Notes: generated from the sequence alone by a model not told the origin. DNA of 64,000 nucleotides from Dictyostelium discoideum (GCA_000004695.1 CM000151.3:4512001-4576000), one strand, 5' to 3'. Counted from the stretch's first letter, positions 6,984 through 29,848 are shown. A program made the numbers and translations.

Positions 6984-9351
6984 ATCATTATTCATGGTAA
7001 ACAATTTAGAAATGATTACTTTTATTCAAAATTTGGTGATCAAGCAAATTTAAATGTATTTTCAAATGGTATGTTTAAAAAACTATTTAAATTTAATTTT
7101 TTATATTATTTTTTTAAACTATTAAATTAATATTCTGGTTCTAATTTTTTTTTTTTTTTTTACTTAATTTTTTATAGATTGTTTTGAATTTCCACCAAGA
7201 GTTTCAAATTTAACTTTATTATCTAGTAATAGCGTTACATTAAACTCTAATCAAACTATTGGATGGGAAATTGTAATTGATAGTGGTGGTGGTATTAAAA
7301 TTAGTTATGTATTTATACATGTAATTTCAAATTTAGATAAAAAAGGATACACATTTGAATTCTATCCAAACTCTACCTCATGGGAAACCACAATTGGAAT
7401 TGCTCTATCACCAGAAACAACACCATCACAAATATTTAAAATTTATAATGCAACTATTATTGACGAAAGAGGAATTAGATCGGACCATATTGATAGTTTT
7501 AAAGTTGATGAAATTTTTTCAAATCAAAGTCCAATTTATCCAATTTCAATTTCACCATTTTATTTATTTGATCTTAGTTTATTTAGCATAACAGTTAATT
7601 CACCATTCATTACTGAATCTGTTCCACCAACAATTACACTTGTAACCCTACCATTTGAAAATGTAGATGATTTTTTACAATATTCAATTTTCTTTCAATT
7701 AGTGTCAACTGATAATGTTGGTATATTAAAAAGCCATATACCACAAGTTTATTTATCGCATTCATCAAACTATGGAGATTTACAAATTTTCCAATGTAAT
7801 ACAGCTATTAATGATACGTCTGAAACAACTTGTAATTATTATGTTACTTGTAAAGTTGAATATGGTTATGGTATTCAAAACCCTGTATCTGTTTTAGTTT
7901 ATGGTGTTGTTGATACTAGTTTCAATGTTGCAAGCTATAGTAGTTTAAGTGAATCCCAAACCTTTGATTTTAATGGTCTTTCCAATAAAAAAACACCTTC
8001 AATTTCAAGTTGGACACCATTAACACCATATAATAATAAATTAACAATTTTTGGTAGAAATTTCCCAACATCAGGTGGAAGTGCTTATTTATATTATACA
8101 GATAGTGATATTGATAATTTAGTAACTTTGAAATTTATTCATTCATCATCTGTAATGGCAGTTTTAGAAATTGGACAAGGTTTAAAACCATTTGTAGTTT
8201 ATACTCAAAATTCAAATAATGAAAAATCTAATAAAGTTGAAATTCATTATTTAGGAATTCCAACATCTTCTTCATCCTCATCTTCATCATCAGATGATGA
8301 TTCAACATTACCACCAGTTTTATGTTTTGATAATTGTGGTGGAACATCAAGAGGTACTTGTATTCCAAATGTTGGATGTAATTGTAAATCACCATATAGT
8401 GGTATAAATTGTCTTTCTGAAACAATTAAAATTCCAAAACCTCAAACAAATACAACATCACCAGATTCAAGAAATGAATTCCCTATTAGTGGTTCAGATA
8501 TTAAACTAAATACAATCATTTCAATTGTAGCATTAAGAGAATTAGATTTTCAAGGTAAACAGGTTAATATTCATTATTTTGATAGTTGGAATTTTACAAC
8601 AATATCTCAAACCAATTTCACATATAGATCACCAATTTTAAAAAACAATCAACATGTTTCAAATATATCAGTAGCAATGGAATGGCATGAACAATCTACA
8701 ACTATTACATTTGCAAAACAAAATCTCACAATTAATCCATCAACTTTGAAATATTATATTTCATTAGATAAATACCCATTTGCATCATCATTAAATACAC
8801 TTGATTTAATCATTAAATCAATGTTTAAAAGTTCACAAACTGATGATGTATGTGGCAGTAAAGGATTTTCATTAAATGATGGAAATGATTATATGACATT
8901 ACAAATTGGAACATACTCATTTGAAGGTAAATTTATAAAAAAAGCAATTATCAATGGCAATAGAATTGTAACAATAAATAATAAATTATTAAATGAAAAT
9001 CAACTAAATAGTAATTCAACTATAACTAAAGAAAAAGATTCATCAAATCAACTTTCATCCTTTATCTCAATTGAAATACCTCATTATGATTCAAATGTAT
9101 TATTAGATCCAAGTTTTTCAGTTTTATTAGATTCAAATGAATCATATAAAAACTCTGAAAATTCAATTTGTACTTCAAAAAAATCCTCAAAACTTACTAC
9201 CGCTCAAATAATTGCTATTGTTATTGTTTCTGTAGTTTTTGTAATAATTCTAGCTCTCTTTATAATCGTTAAATTTTCAAAATCTGATAAATTTTTATCT
9301 ATAAGAATTTTCTATTATAAATTATTTAAACGATTTAAGAAAAAGTATTAA
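6984..9351 (+). CDS. 3' part of the same membrane protein gene (exons 6984..7068 and 7178..9351), with an EGF-like Cys-rich module, a transmembrane helix and a short basic tail
   Basis: The frame is open from the transposon end (IIIHGKQFRNDYFYSKFGDQANLNVFSNG, then a GTATGT donor at 7069). An acceptor at 7176-7177 leads into the long ORF 7702..9351 (CFDNCGGTSRGTCIPNVGCNCKSPYSGINC; ALRELDF...TMNPSTLKYYISLDKYPF; IIAIVIVSVVFVIILALFIIV as the TM helix). A TIG-like motif is present (KLTIFGRNFPTSGGSAYLYY). The region is co-linear with the paralog. Confidence 0.65.
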
Positions 9352-9959
9352 ATTTATTTTTTAAAAAATAATATTAATTGTAAAATAAAGTTTAAAAAAT
9401 AGTTTTTATTAAATAGTTAAAGATTAATGTTTTTTTTTATACCTTTATTTTAATTTTTATTTATTATTTTTATTATAATAATCAGTAAATTTTTGAAAAC
9501 TATTGAATTTTTGGAATATAAATCCACCATTTAATTAATTACTACCAAGTGGTTAAACTTGGATGAAAATCCATTAGTAATTTTATTAATTAAATAATCT
9601 TTCAAAACTGGTAATTTTGAAATAGATAATTTTTTCCCAATCGTATTCGTTGTATGGGCTATCTGTTGATAATAACCAATGAAAAAGATGAAAGCAATCT
9701 TCTTTGATAGCACACGCTAATAATTCTTGTAATAATGTTTTTAAAAAACTCTTTACCCAATTCCTTAATGATTCTATGTGAAAGAAGATATTTAAAAGTT
9801 ATTAAATCAACACCATCATCATTATTAATAATTCTTTTTAAAAAAACTGAATAAATTAAATTTGCATGATTATCTGTAAACTTTTCACAGGTTATTATTT
9901 TTTCAAGCATATCAATTCTTCTATTCTTAATTGAATGATATATTAAACTTTCAAAAAAA

Positions 9960-10176
9960 TTGTTGAAGGGAATTTTTTTTGAAATTTCGCTTTTTAAACG
10001 GCAGTGAATTTTTACACTAAAATACACTGTTTATGCATGGTGTAAAAATTCACTAAATTTTTTTTTTTTTATAATTAAATTAAAAAACAATTTATTTAAT
10101 CAGAAAAATAAAAAACCAATTTTATTCAGTTATTTGCTTGTTATTTATTTTTTTATAACAAAAAAATTTAGTTTGC

Positions 10177-10235
<59 letters not shown>

Positions 10236-10327
10236 CAATTATTTTTTTCAATTTTTTTTTTTATCGATTGTTTTCATTTTTGGGGAATAAAATAAAATTG
10301 TTCGATAAAAAAAAAATTGAAAAAAAT

Positions 10328-10370
<43 letters not shown>

Positions 10371-10569
10371 GGTTTATATTTTAATTATGGTATTCATTAT
10401 TGTTTATATAATTATTTTTAGTATTTATATTATTTATAATTATAAACTCGAGTTAATAGAATTATTATTATTATTATTATTTAAATGTGGGTCAACTATA
10501 ATTAGTGTCTTAGTTCACTTATTTAATATTAACTTATTTTTGTGTCTTCGTTACATAAAAAAAAAAATG

Positions 10570-10603
<34 letters not shown>

Positions 10604-11622
10604 AAAAAAAAAATAAAAAAAAAAAGAAAAATAAAAAAAAAAAGAAAAATAAAAAATAAAAAAAAAAATAAAAAAAATAAAAAAAAAATAAAAAAAAAAG
10701 AGGGGTACCCCCTAAAAAAAAAGAGGGTACCCCCCTAAAAAAAATAATAATTTTAATAATAATAATAATAATAATAATAAAAATGAAAATTAATATTTAA
10801 ATAAAAAAAAGAGGGTACCCCCCTAAAAAATGTTGGAATTTAATTAAATTTATTTTTTATTTTTTTTATTTTTTAATTTTATTTTTTTTATTTTTTAATT
10901 TAAAAAATGTTGATATAAAACAAAAAAATTTTTTCAAAAAAAACATTTCAAATTATTAACAAATTATATTATTATACTTTAATGTATGTGTACAATTTTA
11001 AAAATTTAAAATTTGTTCTATTTTTATCAATCATATCATGTATATTTATTAATTAAATCTCATATATTCTTATTCCCAGCAAATGACATCAGGTGGAATC
11101 GTACAACCAGGCCAAAATCTCTCACAACGTCCAATAAACGGCCAATATGGCTGGGGACCAGCAGCAGGAAGTGCCGCAAATCCACGTGGCGATCTCCGTG
11201 GTTACACTTACAATATTAGATAGTTTCGCTGTCTATTTCTGAATATTCAGAAATCTTTGTTTAATGCCAAAAATAGTAGATATCTATTATATTTTCTCAT
11301 TTTATAAATCTGATAAGATCTGTCTTAAATAAAAAAAATCAAATTTTTTTATAAATTAAAAAAAATCATTTCCGCAAATCCGCAAAAAATAGCGGGAATT
11401 AAATTATTTATTGTTTTTTAAATTGTTTTTTTTGCGTGATATGAAATGAACAGCAAATGAACAACGTGTGAGTTGTATTAGCTGATGGTAAATTGTTGTT
11501 AATTTATAAAAAAAAAAAAAAAATTTTAGTGAATTTTTACACTACGCATAAACAGTGTATTTTAGTGTAAAAATTCACTGCCGTTTAGAAAGCGAAATTT
11601 CAAAAAAAATTCCCTACAACAA
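9960..11622. mobile_element. Non-autonomous TIR element of about 1.66 kb from the same family as the integrase-bearing element (identical 16-nt terminus, different subterminal hairpin repeats)
   Basis: 9960-10050 (ttgttgaagggaattttttttgaaatttcgctttttaaacggcagtgaatttttacactaaaatacactgtttatgcatggtgtaaaaattcacta) is the reverse complement of 11527-11622 (...aaaaaaaattccctacaacaa). Each TIR contains an internal hairpin (agtgaatttttacac...gtgtaaaaattcact). The interior is homopolymer and low-complexity DNA with no credible ORF. Confidence 0.75.
10685..10835. repeat. Three dispersed copies of an aaaaagagggtacccccctaaaaaa motif, with a palindromic GGGTACCC core, inside the non-autonomous element
   Basis: Copies lie at about 10689-10706, 10717-10737 and 10808-10826. 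They are the only G/C-rich islands in an otherwise A/T homopolymer interior. Confidence 0.6.
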
Positions 11623-11791
11623 AATCATTTAATTGCTTTTGGTTGTATTCTGGGAATAAACAACCAATTGTTTCAATGATTGTTTGGGATTTATTGGTTT
11701 TAAATATATCAATTAATAAATAAGATTTGTGTAAATTTAATTGATAAATTGGGTTTGTATGGATTTAATTTTTTTTCAAAAATACTATCAA

Positions 11792-12301
11792 TCATACTAT
11801 TATTAAAGGTATTGATACCAATACCAACCATACTATTATTAAAGATATTGATACCAATCGTACTATGGTTAAACGTATTGATACATTAATATTATTACCA
11901 ATTGTATTTAATAATAATTCTAAAAATTCTAAATCATTGGAACTTAAAACTTTTTCAATGAGATATTTAATTGTTTTAGTTTCAATATTAATGAGTTTAA
12001 TGAATGATGTTAAATTTGATTTAAAATTATTCTTTTCTGAAAAGAAATCATATAATGTTTCATCTAAATCTCTAATGAATACTAATATTTGTTTTTGTGA
12101 TGTTTCTTTAAATTTTAATAAACTTGAAATATATAATTCACTGGAAATTGGTAAAAGTTTTAATTTTAAACAATTTAAAAATGATTTTGAATTTGGATTG
12201 AATTCATTTACACTTGATAGTTTATCAATGAATTTTGATATCTTTTCACTATCTTGAATTGTTGTTGAACAATCTTGGAAACAATCTTTTTTTTTGATCA
12301 C
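11792..12301 (-). CDS. Hypothetical protein, 5' exon; its putative 3' exon lies beyond the non-autonomous element, at about 9659..9950 (minus strand)
   Basis: The ORF starts MIKKKDCFQDCSTTIQDSEKISKFIDKLSSVNEFNPNSKSFLNCLKLKLL.... Its C-terminal 25-30 codons read through 33-bp tandem repeats (11795-11895), so they are probably intronic; a GTAATA donor lies near 11893. A second open frame (..DNHANLIYSVFLKRIINNDDGVDLITFKYLLSHRIIKELGKEFFKNIITRIISVCYQRRL..) follows the element and has similar composition. No homolog was recognised. Confidence 0.3.
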   Translation of the reverse strand: MIKKKDCFQDCSTTIQDSEKISKFIDKLSSVNEFNPNSKSFLNCLKLKLLPISSELYISSLLKFKETSQKQILVFIRDLDETLYDFFSEKNNFKSNLTSFIKLINIETKTIKYLIEKVLSSNDLEFLELLLNTIGNNINVSIRLTIVRLVSISLIIVWLVLVSIPLIIV

Positions 12302-12794
12302 CTATTTCTTAAAAAGTTTTTTTTTTTTTTTTTTTTATCCCTAATACTAAAATTATAATTTGATGGTCAAATTATAATTTTTACGAGTTCATTTTTTTTT
12401 TTTAGATATTTATTTAATAATTGATTATTTGATTTATTTATTTTTTTAAATTTATTATTTAGTTTTTAATAAAAAAAAAAAATAAAAAATAATTAGAAAC
12501 CAAATAATCAAATATTTATTTAATAAAAAAGAACTTAATTTATAAAACTTGTGCCAATAAAAAAAAAAAAAAAAAAAAAAAAAATAGGCACATAAAAAAA
12601 ATGCACTAAAAATAAAAAAAAAAAAAAAAAAATTAAAAAAACGAAAAAAAAAAAAACGAAGAAAAGTCCCACAAACTAGACCAATGATTGTTTTGTACTT
12701 TAGAACGAATCATAACAACCAAACAATTCGACAATAAGTAGGTAATTCTTATCTATAGAATGTTTTCTACGGAATCATTCAATACATAAAATTA

Positions 12795-12890
12795 CAACTT
12801 TATGATGACCCAATACTTTAAGAACATCCAATCATGTTTAAAAGTGTCATGCAAAGGGTAGCACCTTTGTCATGACTGTCTGATTTCCTA
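12795..12890 (+). ncRNA. Candidate box C/D snoRNA
   Basis: There is a 240-bp island (12661-12900) of ordinary base composition with no ORF in a roughly 90% AT intergenic region. It contains tatgatga (a box C RUGAUGA) at 12801-12808 and ctga (box D) at 12880-12883, about 75 nt apart. An internal tgac/ctga could serve as C'/D'. Confidence 0.25.
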
Positions 12891-13162
12891 ATGTCCACCA
12901 TTTTTTAAAATAATTAAAGAAAAAAAAAATAATAAATTAAATTAAAGTAGTAAATAATTTTTAATGTTTTTATAACAAATGAAGAAATAAATAATAATAG
13001 TAATAAGGTTTTTTTTTAATAATAATAAAAACAAAAAAAATAAAAAAATAAGGCTATGTTTTAATGAAAAAAAAAAAAAAATTAAAGGTGTAAATTTATT
13101 TTATTATTTTGGAGAAAAAAAAAAAATTAAAAATAAAAACAAAGTTTTAATTAAATAATATC

Positions 13163-14298
13163 TTATTTTTTAATTTTTTGAAGAAATGTGTTTAATGTAA
13201 TTCCAACAGTTTCTTCAATCTTTTTTTTTTTTTTTAAAAAAAAAAATTAAGGTATTAGTGTGATTGTTGGTTGGTTAGTCATAATAATAATAAAAAATTA
13301 AATTAAATTAAATTAAATTTAATACATACATCGTTCTTGAATTTAATAGTTTTAATTAGATCATCAACACGATCATCTACGAATCTCCAAGTGTTGGAAT
13401 GATCAACTGATGTATCTGATAACATAAATAATTCTGCTGAAGTGTATAATGCAATTAAAAGTCCACGTTTGGCATACCAATCAAACTTTTTTTTTTTTTT
13501 TTTTTTTTTTGATTATAAAAATAAAAATAATAAATTAGTGACAATGTTTTTTTTTTTTTTTTTTTTTAAAAAAAATATTCAACATACATCAGAAGATTTA
13601 TCACCAACTAAATACCAAATATTATCAACTAAAGTTAACATTGAAGGAGAACTATTTACGATATTTTTTGGATTTGCTAAAAGTTGCATTGCTTCAGACC
13701 ATCTTCCAATAAAAGGTTTGATCATTGATAATCTTAATTTCAAAGCTAATTTCACTTTTTCTTTTTTTGATAAACCTGATAATAATTGTTGTTCACTATT
13801 TTCAGCATCACTTAATTTAATCATTAAATCTGTATTACATTTAGTAACAAAGTATAATGCCAATTCATATGCTGAATCTTCACCCAAAATACCTTGAGTA
13901 ATTGGTGGATATCCCATTTCAATACATGCTTTACTAACTGCTTCTGATGTCCATCCATATGAATTTACATATTTTAATGAATTTTCTAAAATTTTAATTT
14001 TTAATTCAATTTCATTATTTATTTTATTAGTTTGTTGTTCTGGTTGTTGTTCTGGTTGTTGTTGTTGTTCTTGTTTTATTTGTTCTTGTTTTAATTCTAT
14101 TTTTTCATTTTGATTTGGTACTGTAGTTGAAAAGAAATTTATTTTATTATATGTTTGTTTAATATTTGTATTATTATCATTATTATTATTATTTAAAAAT
14201 AATGAATTTCTTAAAATTGTAACATTTGTAAATTTATTTGAAGATAAAGTGCTTCTTAAAAAAAGACTATTGCTTTTTTTTAATATGTTGGAAATCAT
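13163..14298 (-). CDS. coq9: Ubiquinone biosynthesis protein COQ9, mitochondrial (3 exons)
   Basis: Exon model: complement(13588..14298, 13330..13485, 13163..13219). Exon 1 has an N-terminal presequence (MISNILKKSNSLFLRSTLSS) followed by ...NIWYLVGDKSSD and a GTATGT donor. Exon 2 encodes FDWYAKRGLLIALYTSAELFMLSDTSVDHSNTWRFVDDRVDDL, which matches the human COQ9 C-terminal region ([51 protein letters not shown]). Both introns are about 100-110 bp. Confidence 0.8.
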
Positions 14299-19499: not shown

Positions 19500-19540
<41 letters not shown>

Positions 19541-23581: not shown

Positions 23582-26500
23582 TTTAGCATTAAAAATTATT
23601 GCACAATTATTAAGTGTTGATCCAGTTAAATTGGAAACTTGTTTAACAATTCGTCATGTTTTAATTCGTGGTCAAAATTTCGTAATTCCATTAAAAGTTA
23701 ATGAAGCAGAAGATACTAGAGATTCTTTAGCAAAAGCATTATATGGTAATGTTTTCAATTGGCTCGTAGTTTTCATCAATTCTAAAATTCATAAACCACA
23801 AAAAAATTCAACATTTATTGGTGTATTGGATATTTTTGGTTTTGAAAATTTTAAAAAGAATAGTTTTGAACAATTTTGGTAAGTTTTTTTTTTTTTAAAA
23901 ATATATATATAAAAAAAAAAAAATAATTTCTAATATATTTTATTTATTTTTTTTAAAAAAAAAGTATTAATTTTGCAAATGAAAAATTACAACAACATTT
24001 TAATCAACATATTTTTAAATTAGAACAAGAAGAATATGAAAAAGAAAAAATTAATTGGAGTAAGATCGTATATAATGATAATCAAGAATGTTTAGATTTA
24101 ATTGAAAAGAGACCATTAGGTATTTTAAGTTTATTGGATGAGGAGAGTAGATTCCCACAAGCAACAGATTTAACCTATTTGGATAAATTACATACCAATC
24201 ACGAGAAACATCCATACTATGAAAAACCAAGACGTTCAAAGAATACATTTGTTGTGAAACATTATGCTGGTGAAGTACATTATGATACTCAAGGTTTCTT
24301 GGATAAGAATAAGGATACCGTTAGTGATGATCTTTCAAGCTTACTTCAAGGAAGTAAGAGTAAATTCATCATTGAATTATTTACACCACCAAGAGAAGAG
24401 GGTGATGACAGTGATAAGGGCAGAGAGAAGAAAAAGACAACAGCAGGTCAAACATTCAAGACACAATTACAATCGTTGATTAATATTTTATCATCAACTC
24501 AACCACATTACGTTCGTTGTATTAAACCAAACACAACCAAAGAACCAGCAGTATACGATCGTGAATTGATTCAAGCTCAATTAAGATATGCAGGTATGAT
24601 GGAAACCATTAGAATTAGAAAATTGGGTTACCCAATCCGTCATACACACAAAGAGTTTAGAGATCGTTATTTGATTTTAGATTATCGTGCTCGTTCCACC
24701 GATCATAAACAAACTTGTGCAGGTTTAATCAATTTACTCTCTGGTACAGGTGGTCTCGAAAGGGATGAATGGCAATTGGGTAATACTAAAGTTTTTATTA
24801 GAGATCATCAATATTTGAAACTTGAGGAACTTAGAAAATTAAAACTCCTCAAAAAAGTTACACTCATTCAATCAGTTTGGAGAATGTATCGTTGTAAGAA
24901 ACGTTATCAACAAATACGTGCCTCTGCAAAGATCTTGGGTGCCGCCATGTTATCCCATTCTTCAAGAAGAGACTTCCAAGAACAACGTCAAGCCGTTCAA
25001 AGAATTAAAGGTTTCTTTAAGATGCTTACCTATCAAAAACAATTTAAAATCATTCAAATCAACCTTAGAATCGTTCAAAATAATATTCGTTCATTCATTG
25101 CTCGTCGTCATTCAAGAAATGCAGTTTTACTAAAAAGAGATAGAAATGCAAGAATGTTGGAAATTCAAAGAGAAAAAGATGAGGAAGAACGTAATCGTCA
25201 AGAAAAAGAAGAACGTGATCGTCAAGAAAAAGAAGATAAAGAGAAAGAAACCGCTGATAGAAGACAACTCCAAGAAGAACAAAAACGTCGTGAAGAAGAG
25301 TTGCGTGCTAAACGTGAAGAAGAAGAATTGAAGAAATTGGAAGAAAAGAAATCACAATTAAAAGAGTTGAATCAAATCGATGAATTATCATCACTCGAAA
25401 GAATGCTCAAAGAACAACAAGATAAAAATATTAACGAACTCGATGATTTTGTTAATTCTTTAGAGGCTTTCTCATTCGAAGGTGGTGTAGACGATTCTCA
25501 ACCATACTCTTTCAATCATAAAATGTATGAAATGTCCCCAGAAGCACTCGATAAAATTTCAATCACTGATTTACTTCAAGGTTTAAAACAAACCGTTAGA
25601 TCCGTTACTAAATTTGAAGTTGATGAATCTAAATTTGAATTACCACCAGGTATTGAAAATGTACTTAAAAGAGCACCAGGTATTAAAAGACAAGCTTCTT
25701 CTTTCTTACCAGGTCAACCAATCCCAGATGTTTATTCTTCACCACAATATCCAGTTGATGAAGCTGATGATGATGATAGTAATAATAATTACATAAATAG
25801 TAATAATGGTGATTTACCACTTCCAACATCACAATCCTCCGATTTCTCATTACCACCACCACCATCATCATCTTCAATGGACTTTGGTTTACCACCACCA
25901 CCACCATCATCATCATCAGGTGGTACATATTCATTACCACCAATGCCAGTATTTGATTTCGGTATGATTGATCCAATTTTAGGTGCACCACCACCACCAC
26001 CATCAACATCAGATTCAACATCACCATCAGCAACAGCAACAGGTAATAATACACCAAATTCATCATCGGCATCAGCAAGTCAATCAACTAATCAAGTAAA
26101 TCCACAACCAACTGTTTCAGTTGTTGAATTACCACAAATTTTAAATGATGAAGAGATTTCATTATATTCATTCTATGATTATGCAAATAAGAATTTCAAT
26201 ATTGAAAAATTAAAACAAAAAGATGATATTTTCAGTTATCAAAAATCTCATATCAAATCATCATTATTGGTACACAGTGATGCAGAACAAACTAAAGTTG
26301 CAGTTGAAATCTTTAGTAAGGTTCTTCATTATATGAATAGCAATCCATTGGTTTCAAAGAAAGATCCAGCCGATTTCTATTCACCAGTTAAATTCATCTT
26401 AACCAAAGGTTTAGCCATTGAGAGTTTAAGAGATGAAATCTATTGTCAATTGATTAAACAATCCACTAGTAATCCAATTCAAGATTTAAATATTCGTGTT

Positions 26501-29500
26501 TGGGAATTAATTCATTTCACTTGTTCAACATTCCCACCAACTAGAAAATTAATTAAATATTTTGCAGCTTATCTTAAAACTACCATTCAACAAAGTGATG
26601 TTTCAAAATCTGTAAAGGATTCAGCACAAGCCTCCTATTTCATTCTTCAAAGATTCACATTAAATGGTGCACGTAAACAAGTACCATCTGTAACTGAATT
26701 AGAATCAATTAAAGAGAATCGTCCAATTTTCGTTCGTATTACCGCCACCGATGGTTCATTGAAGGGTTTACATATTGATAGTGCCACTACTTGTCAAGAG
26801 TCTTCAAATGATTTATCACAACGTTCGAGAATGCGTGTAAATTCAAAAGAGAATGGTTTCACTATCATTGAATCATTCAATGGCATTGAAAGAGATATCG
26901 CACCAACCGATAAGTTATGTGATGTATTGAGTAAGGTTGAGAATTTACAAGCAACCCTCTCAAGTAAGATTCAAGTTAATTTCAAATTTGTTTTCAAAAA
27001 GAAATTATTCTTTGATAATATCACCAATAATGTACCAACCACTTCAATCAATGTTGAAAATGAATTTTATTATCATCAATTGTTTAATGATTTATTCAAT
27101 TCCAATTATTGTAAGGATCAAGATTATCAAATTTCAATTGGTTCTTTGAAATTACAATTTGAGTCTTCTGATTACACCGATGAGATAAGAGCTTGGCTAC
27201 CAGGTAATGGTCGTGGTAAATATTTCACTACTGATATCGAAAAGAATAGATTCGATGATTTCATCAATAAATATAAATCACACAAAGGTTTATCACCAGA
27301 GGATGCAAAGAAACAAATGGTTCAATTGTTAGAGAAACATCCATTGGCAAATTGTTCATTGGTTGTATGTGAACATCAATCTGAATCACTCCCATACCCA
27401 AAGAATTTCGTTTTAGCATTGAATGTCAATGGTATTAATATCTATGATCCTGCCACTAGTAAAATGTTAGAGTCTGTCAAATACTCAAATCAATCTCAAC
27501 AAAATTTAAAGAGTGATGATAAATCAGTTTCGATCATTTTAGAGAATAAGAGTACTTTACAAGCATTCACTGGTGATGTTCAAAAATTGGTTTCATTAAT
27601 TAAAGAGTATTCATTATATTTAAGAAACAATGCTAAATATGCCAGAGCCTTAAAGGATTACAATGTTTCAGATACTTCATTGCTACCATTCAAGAGAAAT
27701 GATATCATAACTATCACATTTAAAGATCAAGAGAATAAATGGTTCATGGGTCAACTCAATGGTAAAGAAGGTTCATTCCCAGTTGATCATGTTGAAATTT
27801 TATTATCTGATGTACCACCACCACAACCAGTTCATCCAGTTGCTACTTTATCACCCCCAATGTCACCAACTATTCCAAACATTACAAATACTCCACCACC
27901 ACCACCATCAATTAGTGATTCAATGTCACCACCACCACAAGTTGGTATGTTACCACCACCACCTCCACCATCAGTTATGGGTTCGACCAAACCAATTGAA
28001 ATTCCATCATTAGGTATTCCACCACCACCACCATCATCATCAAATTCATCAGTACCAAATTCACCAATTGGTTCACCAATGATGGGTATTCCACCACCAC
28101 CACCAACTATTTCAGTTCATTCATTGTCAAACAGTGGTAATAGTACTCCTCCACCACCACTACCATCACTTTCAACTCCACCAACACTTTCAACTCCACC
28201 ACCAATTTCATCACCACCAAACTTTAGATCATCATTAAGAGTATCAATGCTTAATACATCAAATGATGGTGGTGATAATAGTTCTGATGATCCATCAAAG
28301 AGATTAACAGTTTCGCCAGCCATTGGTACCGATAGTCAATTGGCACAATGGGCATCAACTCGTTTCCGTTCATTCAAGAGAGCATCAACATTGAATCAAC
28401 AACAAGCAACCTTAAAGAGAAAAGCACCAGTCGATCCAAATACAGCATTCTACTTTAACAAGGATCCAATTAAAGAGTCATTGATTGAAATGGAAGCAAA
28501 ATTATCAAAGAAAGCCATTAAAAACTTTTCAGAGATTATGATGTGGATGGGTGATTATCCAATTCCAAAGGGTCAAACAGCATCATTGGTAATTCAATCA
28601 ATTATTTCACGTGGTATTGAAAATCATGAATTACGTGATGAAATCTATTGTCAAGCCTATCGTCAAACCAATAAGAATCCAAAGGTTGAATCAGCCAAGA
28701 AAGGTTTCGAATTAATCTATTTCCTTAGTATCACATTCTCACCATCAGACTCATTGTTACAACCATTCATGGAACAATTAATGTCAAGAAATATTGCAAT
28801 TCAATCAAGTTCACCACAATTGGCTTCATTGATTGCAGTTTGTATTGAGAAATTAGAATCTCATCCAATTCCATCCTATCAACAACGTAAGATGGGTCCA
28901 TCAGCCACTGAAATTCAATCATTCCGTTCAAATCTTGAGAATGGTGATATTAGCACATGTAAAATTCGTTTCATTGATCAATCTACTAAACTCGCTAAAA
29001 TCAACACCTATACAACCATCAGAGAGATCACCGATACCGTTTGTCGTCAATATGGTATCTCACAACAATCGATTAAAATGTTTGGCATTAGTGCAGTCAA
29101 TGAAACCGCAGGTATTAGTAAAGTGGTATCCGAGACCGATATGATTTACGATGTTTTGGCTCGTTGGGAACAAAGTGAAGAAAAGGGTGAATTCTATTTC
29201 CAAGTTCGTCGTAGATTCTTCTTGGATGATGTAAATAAAATTTTGGATCAAGAGCATCTTTGGACTGATGATGATATTTGTTTCGAGTTAACCTATTGTC
29301 AAATTCGTGATGAATGGATGAAAGGTTTATACACAAATGTCAATGAGAAAGATTCATCGATTATTGCCGCAATCTTAATTCAATTGTTATATCCAAATCA
29401 ATCCAAATTGGTTTTAACCAAAGAGGTTGTTCGTCAAGTTTTACCTGATCAAATTTTGAACTCTCAAAATATAAAGGTTTGGATCTCAATGATTGAATCT

Positions 29501-29848
29501 CAAATCTTTGAATTGGTCTCTCAAACCCCAGAATACTTGAAATTGATGTTTATCAATTTAATTGGTTCAAAATCACCATTATTCGGTTGTACATTATTTA
29601 ACATTCAACAAAAAGAAAATCCACCAAAAGCTTGGTTGGCCATCAACAAAAAAGGTGTTTCCATTTTCGATCCACACACTAAAGAATCTAAAAACTTTTG
29701 GACTTTCCAATCAATCTCAAATGTCGCTTTCACTGATGACACTTTTTGTATTATGACTGGTAATTTAATGAAACCAATTAAACAAACCTTTACAACTGAT
29801 GAACATTCTTCAATTGCTTCAGTTTATCAATTTTATTCTTCTCAATAA
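22415..29848 (+). CDS. myoI: Class VII unconventional myosin (motor, IQ motifs, charged repeat region, MyTH4-FERM, SH3, MyTH4-FERM); 4 exons
   Basis: Exon model: join(22415..22961, 23122..23472, 23587..23878, 23965..29848). This gives contiguous motor-domain motifs across junctions: GESGAGKT; ...ARIIN/YLLEKSRI; ...[16 protein letters not shown]; [35 protein letters not shown]. Donors are GTAAGT and introns are poly-A/T rich. The assembled protein is about 2357 aa, the length I recall for DdMVII (MyoI). Confidence 0.92.

Follow-up and report, generated by a model that had tools for sequence, protein, structure and literature searches.

What is encoded by a short island of ordinary base composition that lies downstream of coq9 in the AT-rich intergenic DNA of Dictyostelium discoideum, and what might its product do? 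The island occupies positions 12661-12900 of the window (the whole 64,000-nt stretch of DNA that was analysed). As the original prediction had described, its G+C content is 27-38% versus 5-14% in the flanks (100-nt windows), and no ORF longer than 45 aa overlaps it. That prediction had also read a candidate box C/D snoRNA from two motifs, and both are where it placed them on the + strand: tATGATGA at 12801-12808, which includes box C, and CTGA (box D) at 12880-12883, with a gap of 71 nt between the boxes. RTGATGA followed by CTGA 50-100 nt on occurs four times in the whole window, both strands included, so that motif geometry alone is not beyond chance. We hold the element to be real because a published primer matches it exactly, because it shows sharp-edged conservation in two other species, and because it folds in a strand-specific manner. 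With the published primer, the parameters of a published snoRNA (OR1, below), conservation, and folding all in agreement, the candidate proved correct: the island carries a box C/D snoRNA gene that is read from the + strand and in convergent orientation to coq9, whose product as encoded in the window is 100% identical to the AX4 protein. The limits first given for the element were slightly off, since it comprises a promoter motif at 12667, a conserved block at 12722-12903, and a T-run at 12901-12906. There is one copy of it in the window. ARAGORN found no tRNA in the window, and Rfam gave no match at gathering thresholds across the whole window and none at E <= 10 for 12300-13200. The features of the locus, in order of position, are:

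12667-12674, + strand: putative promoter DUSE (Dictyostelium upstream sequence element), TCCCACAA, consensus [AT]CCCA[CT]AA
12675-12721, + strand: spacer from promoter to start
12722-12801, + strand: conserved 5' domain, with an imperfect long hairpin (12736-12800) and a U8/TtnuCD26-like motif (12734-12757)
12799-12900, + strand: published mature snoRNA OR1, 102 nt (PMC8817022, Tables S4/S5)
12802-12808, + strand: box C, ATGATGA, unchanged in D. discoideum, D. citrinum, and D. firmibasis
12815-12845, + strand: internal hairpin 3, predicted by both MFE folding and RNAalifold; its only substitution (T12832 to A, in D. citrinum) falls in the loop
12846-12876, + strand: internal hairpin 4, predicted by both MFE folding and RNAalifold; 12 bp with a one-base bulge
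12860-12880, - strand: primer-extension oligo no. 36 (PMC8817022, Table S2), GACAGTCATGACAAAGGTGCT, exact 21-nt match
12880-12883, + strand: box D, CTGA, unchanged in D. discoideum, D. citrinum, and D. firmibasis
12884-12900, + strand: 3' tail after box D, unusually long (17 nt), variable at 12884-12889 and conserved (TAATGTCCACCA) at 12889-12900
12901-12906, + strand: T-run, likely terminator, with TTTT kept in three species
12907-12930, + strand: conserved stretch AAATAATTAAAGAAAAAAAAAA after the T-run, 83-90% identical versus 37-40% further on

Is this gene a new one? A combination of snoScan and RNA-seq has brought the number of box C/D snoRNAs described in D. discoideum from 17 to 47 (Diesend et al. 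2022, Sci Rep 12:1952; PMC8817022). One of these, OR1, is given in Tables S4/S5 with boxes AUGAUGA and CUGA, a gap of 71, a length of 102 nt, a GC content of 37.25%, and the location chr2:4524799-4524900 on the + strand. If the window starts at chr2:4,512,001, one more than a multiple of 32,000, that location corresponds to 12799-12900, where 38 of the 102 nucleotides are G or C, the same 37.25%. No other entry in the tables of that paper fits the locus. The primer GACAGTCATGACAAAGGTGCT has its sole match in the window here (0 expected by chance), reaching the first base of box D; since it matches the - strand, the oligo is antisense to a + strand RNA. The snoRNA gene is thus almost certainly identical to OR1. 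The suggestion that this might be an unannotated small RNA gene has to be withdrawn: the locus was already described as an expressed box C/D snoRNA, and the earlier call from raw sequence was correct but not new. A small RNA from the locus is on record: OR1 passed the expression filter of PMC8817022, which asked for a distinct 5' end and over 100 RNA-seq reads, and that study reports primer extension products of the predicted size for most snoRNAs.

One inconsistency lies within the published tables. The Table S2 oligo that matches the locus is named 'CD37', and the locus has the parameters listed under 'OR1' in Tables S4/S5; this looks like a naming slip in PMC8817022. CD37 itself is tabulated there with AUGAUUA/AUGA, a gap of 66, 83 nt, 39.76% GC, and a position on chr1, 180 nt from CD3. 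CD37 was rejected as a match for the locus, which lacks its boxes and in which no stretch of 83 nt reaches 33 G+C; the CD3 oligo, too, has no match in the window.

What OR1 does is a separate question. The original prediction had named complementarity to rRNA and a terminal stem as features to look for, and the published analysis gave neither: OR1 is assigned to none of 49 mapped 2'-O-methyl sites, and its terminal stem is only 1 bp by snoScan (PMC8817022). In our folding of the element, no flanking complementarity was found beside boxes C and D. The lack of a terminal stem does not exclude membership of the C/D class; about half of D. discoideum snoRNAs are without one, and complementary stretches present only in the precursor flank some stem-less Dictyostelium snoRNAs (PMC8817022). 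The published account describes the 102-nt C/D part alone, with no target, promoter, conservation, or 5' domain. Its RNA-seq, on which the published 5' end of OR1 is based, used TruSeq small-RNA (18-40 nt) or poly(A) libraries, in which a capped or triphosphate 170-nt RNA would not show.

To see how far the unit extends, we compared the locus with those of other dictyostelids. The same element lies at the same place and in the same orientation downstream of coq9, convergent with it, in D. citrinum (L002) and D. firmibasis (L003). Fractional identity to D. discoideum changes along the locus as follows:

Upstream DNA: 0.68 in D. citrinum, 0.32 in D. firmibasis
DUSE region: 0.86 and 0.64, respectively, with the core GTCCCACAA invariant
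Spacer (45 gapless columns, 12677-12721; length kept): 0.56 and 0.51
5' domain: 0.99 and 0.95
Box C to box D: 0.95 and 0.93
Tail after box D: 0.76
T-run plus 25 nt: 0.90 and 0.83
Further downstream DNA: 0.40 and 0.37

The conserved block is thus 12722-12903, ~180 nt that are 93-99% identical in D. citrinum and D. firmibasis. It begins ~75 nt ahead of the published OR1 5' end, and its 5' domain (~70 nt) equals or exceeds the C/D body in conservation. The three species are closely related (four-fold sites of coq9 are 79-90% identical), yet the contrast between spacer and block indicates constraint despite this closeness. With three such close species, there is almost no covariation by which to judge the 5' domain. 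Conservation across dictyostelids, which the original prediction had raised as a check, was found in D. citrinum and D. firmibasis, and no homologue was seen in the coq9-syntenic loci of four distant species (Polysphondylium violaceum, Tieghemostelium lacteum, Cavenderia fasciculata, and Heterostelium album). Two metagenome pattern scans likewise gave no homologue, yielding either nothing or two chance matches in unrelated DNA. Gene order around coq9 is itself partly kept within the D. discoideum group and not in more distant dictyostelids: the window contains a myosin-type motor ORF at 24134-29848 (+), and the D. firmibasis coq9 locus (L003 1-1459) carries a gene with myosin head, MyTH4, and FERM domains.

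The conserved block is preceded by a promoter motif. In D. discoideum, a DUSE stands ~60 nt ahead of the starts of many non-coding RNA genes transcribed by Pol II and by Pol III, and a T-run is a Pol III stop (PMC7919456). At the OR1 locus, the DUSE lies 55-68 nt (~60) ahead of the block start, a spacing that is kept in the three species, and GTCCCACAA is unchanged in D. citrinum and D. firmibasis while the DNA around it diverges. A conserved TCCCACAA followed by a spacer fixed at 45 nt is what a DUSE-promoted non-coding RNA gene with a start near the block would have. The 8-mer is not rare in itself, with 6 occurrences in the window versus 10 expected from shuffles. Other matches, at 19540, 24153, and 51505, were set aside; they lie in coding or promoter contexts and have no RNA islands. 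The DUSE at 12667-12674 would drive transcription from a start near 12728-12735 to the T-run at 12901, yielding a primary transcript of ~170 nt in which a 70-nt 5' domain precedes box C, two hairpins separate box C from box D, and the 17-nt tail comes last. We consider it likely that the DUSE-driven unit includes the 5' domain. As for whether this domain is present in the mature RNA, the DUSE spacing and its 95-99% identity speak for it, and the published 5' end, 3 nt ahead of box C, speaks against it.

The locus shares with other DUSE-dependent non-coding RNA genes (Class I RNAs and snRNAs) a DUSE ~60 nt upstream and a T-run after the gene. It differs from Class I RNAs, which we take to be 42-65 nt long, in being far longer and in having C and D boxes. 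Class I RNA is ruled out on length and boxes, and no Rfam model matched at threshold. The stretch AAATAATTAAAGAAAAAAAAAA beyond the T-run might act in 3' processing or in termination, or its identity might be an artefact of aligning low-complexity sequence.

Folding of the RNA supports the assignment to the + strand and bears on a guide function. Compared with shuffled sequences, the island folds with z = -3.9 on the + strand and z = -1.1 on the - strand. The segment between the boxes (12809-12879) folds with z = -4.5 into hairpins 3 and 4. In hairpin 4, both D. citrinum and D. firmibasis have A-U in place of the G12851-C12871 pair, which is a compensatory change; with A12853 to G the pair becomes G-U, and the bulged base is variable. 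In this predicted structure, box C is followed by just 6 unpaired nt, and box D is preceded by 3. Because the inter-box space is fully paired, it would hold no antisense guide beside box D or a D' box, which agrees with the published orphan status of OR1. On this model, a role for OR1 as a methylation guide is unlikely. Boxes C and D together form a kink-turn that recruits core snoRNP proteins and stabilises the RNA, and those of OR1 would form a kink-turn recruiting these proteins. The published 102-nt RNA takes in the tail at 12884-12900. Upstream of box C, the 5' hairpin (12736-12800, 65 nt) has a predicted energy of -14.2 kcal/mol (z = -3.9; - strand, z = -3.4).

A C/D RNA with a 5' domain and no guide invites comparison with U8, a snoRNA that takes part in maturation of the large ribosomal RNA. 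In U8, box C stands in the middle of the RNA, after a 5' domain; two hairpins separate it from box D, and the gene has an snRNA-type promoter of its own. The OR1 unit as proposed here would resemble U8 (SNORD118, RF00096) and TtnuCD26 in its length, in having a 5' domain before box C and a pair of hairpins before box D, which itself lies close to the 3' end, in its own snRNA-type promoter, in the T-run after the gene (as in Tetrahymena), and in a 5'-terminal motif that may be shared. It differs from U8 in its longer 5' domain (~70 nt), which can fold into one hairpin, and in the 17-nt tail after box D. TtnuCD26 was proposed as the Tetrahymena U8, the first outside animals (Andersen & Nielsen 2012, PMC3273799). 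According to that study, TtnuCD26 equals U3 in abundance and pairs through its 5' end with the extreme 5' end of 26S rRNA, and the monocistronic snoRNA genes of Tetrahymena are followed by T-runs. The literature searched contained no mention of a Dictyostelium U8.

The 5' motif provides the most direct comparison. With a 196-nt query, Rfam returned a weak, partial match, which is not significant, between positions 1-30 of RF02302 (TtnuCD26) and 12733-12762 (16.9 bits, E = 3). Aligned directly, the 5' consensus of TtnuCD26 agrees with 12734-12757 at 21 of 24 bases, and none of 2000 shuffles did as well; this is the best local score for the motif on either strand of the window (36 versus 28.5 for the runner-up). 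The two differences from TtnuCD26 inside the motif core are C-to-U changes that would keep pairing with G. The human U8 5' end, whose sequence we confirmed from primers in PMC9104694, matches weakly, at 15 of 18 bases (GU.GG.UAAU.CUUA.CU), and 49 of 2000 shuffles were as good. The motif is 5'-terminal in both RNAs, given the probable 5' end at the OR1 locus. The U8 covariance model (RF00096) gave no match at E <= 10, the 196-nt query included.

We also asked how well the 5' segment would pair with the 5' end of the large subunit (LSU) rRNA. The LSU 5' ends came from contaminant eukaryotic rDNA contigs, none of them assignable to a dictyostelid. Against the LSU 5' site of 28 distinct foreign contigs of this kind, the duplex energies were -10.6 to -18.3 kcal/mol, and the site was top-ranked in only two. 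For fungal-type LSU 5' ends (CAGGTAGGATTACCCGCTG), the best duplex reached -16.6 kcal/mol, and the site ranked 1st and 6th of more than 1100 windows in two contigs. Two side observations arose from these contigs. There are 61 contigs filed under bacterial isolates or MAGs that carry eukaryotic LSU rDNA 5' ends, an instance of assembly contamination. In addition, a universally conserved LSU segment ~2.9 kb in, CAGGTTAGTTTTACCCTACTGATGA (L010:6608, L020:4482, L045:3750), pairs with the TtnuCD26 5' consensus at -23.8 kcal/mol; this duplex beats the proposed LSU 5' target in most contigs, and the Dictyostelium motif is weaker there.

Several readings of the extended unit can be set against one another. 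In the one that we favor, the conserved 5' domain would be the working part of the RNA, and its 5'-terminal motif, AAGUAGGUAAUUCUUAUCUAUA, would be the counterpart of the TtnuCD26 and human U8 5' ends. The RNA would act like U8, pairing transiently with pre-rRNA, most likely in the 5' region of 26S, through the stretch GUAGGUAAUUCUUAUCU of the 5' domain, and would assist folding and processing of the large subunit as a chaperone. On this reading, the 102-nt RNA of the publication would represent a 5'-trimmed C/D core, visible to small-RNA libraries that depend on a 5' phosphate. Alternatively, OR1 might be an ordinary 102-nt orphan C/D snoRNA with a target other than the mapped rRNA sites, or with none, and the 5' region a precursor leader, whose hairpin would be cut by a nuclear RNase III before 5'-3' trimming up to the snoRNP. 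Rnt1 cleaves the 5' leaders of yeast snoRNA precursors in this way. Such a leader fits the distinct published 5' end 3 nt before box C, the long hairpin at 12736-12800 directly upstream of that box, the ability of GACA at 12730 to pair with UGUC just ahead of box D, and the precursor-only complementary stretches known at some Dictyostelium snoRNAs (PMC8817022). A purely structural hairpin should drift, however, and the 5' domain has only 1-4 differences per 80 nt, fewer than hairpin 4, where D. firmibasis differs at 4 of 31 nt, and far fewer than the spacer. Moreover, the two substitutions at paired positions of the 5' domain are not compensatory (one gives G-U and one breaks a pair), there is no free guide sequence between the boxes, and the likeness between the 5' end and TtnuCD26 would be fortuitous. 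The leader is a serious possibility that we nevertheless doubt.

The 5' hairpin could instead release a second product, miRNA-like or other, from the transcript that also yields the C/D snoRNA. At 65 nt, imperfectly paired, with z = -3.9 and high sequence conservation in both arms, it has the form for this, and generic miRNA models in Rfam match it weakly (MIR6445, E = 0.38; mir-968, E = 4.3). Those matches are far under the gathering scores, though; the - strand hairpin folds equally well (z = -3.4), as any inverted repeat does, and none of six hairpin strings (three motifs in DNA and RNA spelling) occurs in a D. discoideum miRNA/DrnB supplement (PMC6161686). We regard a separate small RNA as improbable. 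Far less probable still is that the island belongs to a neighbouring mRNA, as the coq9 3' UTR or as a 5' exon of the gene on its left, which is read from the minus strand, or that it encodes a minus-strand ORF of 27 aa (12818-12901). The island is ~260 nt beyond the coq9 stop (near 13158 by our splice reading), and the ORF has a good AAAATG context and is open in three species; nonetheless, four of its five codon differences from D. citrinum alter the residue (R to I, K to E, D to N, and I to F), and the changes in hairpin 4 compensate at the RNA level. Folding, boxes C and D, and the antisense primer all indicate a + strand RNA, convergent with coq9, and its sharp conservation edges bear no relation to that gene. 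The possibility of an mRNA exon or 3' UTR, which the original prediction had itself raised, is thus not borne out.

Other snoRNA classes were rejected. The unit resembles U3 in having a 5' domain and a C/D 3' domain, and it contains the strings GAC and CUAUAG, which we take to recall the U3 GAC box and box A. The U3, Fungi_U3, and Plant_U3 models of Rfam gave no match at E <= 10, there is no B/C pair between box C and box D, and the element is single copy. Nor is it an H/ACA (hairpin-hinge-hairpin-ACA) RNA, as the hairpin lacks a pseudouridylation pocket and the ACA overlaps the stem.

Returning to the U8-like reading, we grade its parts separately. That the 5' domain functions beyond processing is somewhat more probable than that it does not. 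A U8-like role of the RNA is possible, and we lean slightly against it. The statement as a whole, which joins the OR1 gene, the DUSE unit, the 5' domain, and the U8-like role, falls a little below an even chance. Its most specific form is a tentative proposal that we think could well be wrong, namely that OR1 is the 3' core of a ~170-nt amoebozoan U8-type snoRNA whose conserved 5' end pairs with the 5' region of 26S pre-rRNA and chaperones 5.8S/26S maturation.

The comparison adds to the published description of OR1 a conserved unit that is ~70 nt longer at the 5' end, an snRNA-type promoter, and an RNA that in its predicted fold has no room for a methylation guide; the unit also has a 5' motif like that of TtnuCD26, the sole U8 candidate known from organisms other than animals. 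These features give it, tentatively, the look of a U8-type processing snoRNA rather than a methylation guide. If OR1 is U8-like, the absence of a methylation target would be explained, and Dictyostelium would offer a genetically tractable U8 system. Together with the Tetrahymena candidate, U8 would then be present in three eukaryotic supergroups, which would trace it back to, or close to, the last eukaryotic common ancestor instead of to an invention within the Metazoa, and would support an ancient origin of U8-dependent maturation of the large-subunit rRNA.

The DNA to the left of the gene differs in extent between the species. A ComC-like gene (DUF7034/ComC_SSD) lies at 7702-9351 on the + strand, and the gap from it to the snoRNA (9352-12660 in the window) measures ~3.3 kb in D. 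discoideum; the gap is only ~0.8 kb long in D. citrinum (L002 7472-8265) and 2.2 kb long in D. firmibasis (L003 7780-9950). The extra DNA in D. discoideum includes a 169-aa minus-strand ORF (11792-12301) that has no ATG start and no Pfam match. A second island in the AT-rich intergenic DNA, at 11083-11223 (+), has 47-55% G+C and contains a 46-aa ORF, MTSGGIVQPGQNLSQRPINGQYGWGPAAGSAANPRGDLRGYTYNIR; it gave no Pfam, Rfam, or tRNA match. Finally, a perfect 16-bp inverted repeat (AGTGAATTTTTACACT and AGTGTAAAAATTCACT, with 19 nt between them) at 11528-11578 may be a transposon end or a hairpin.
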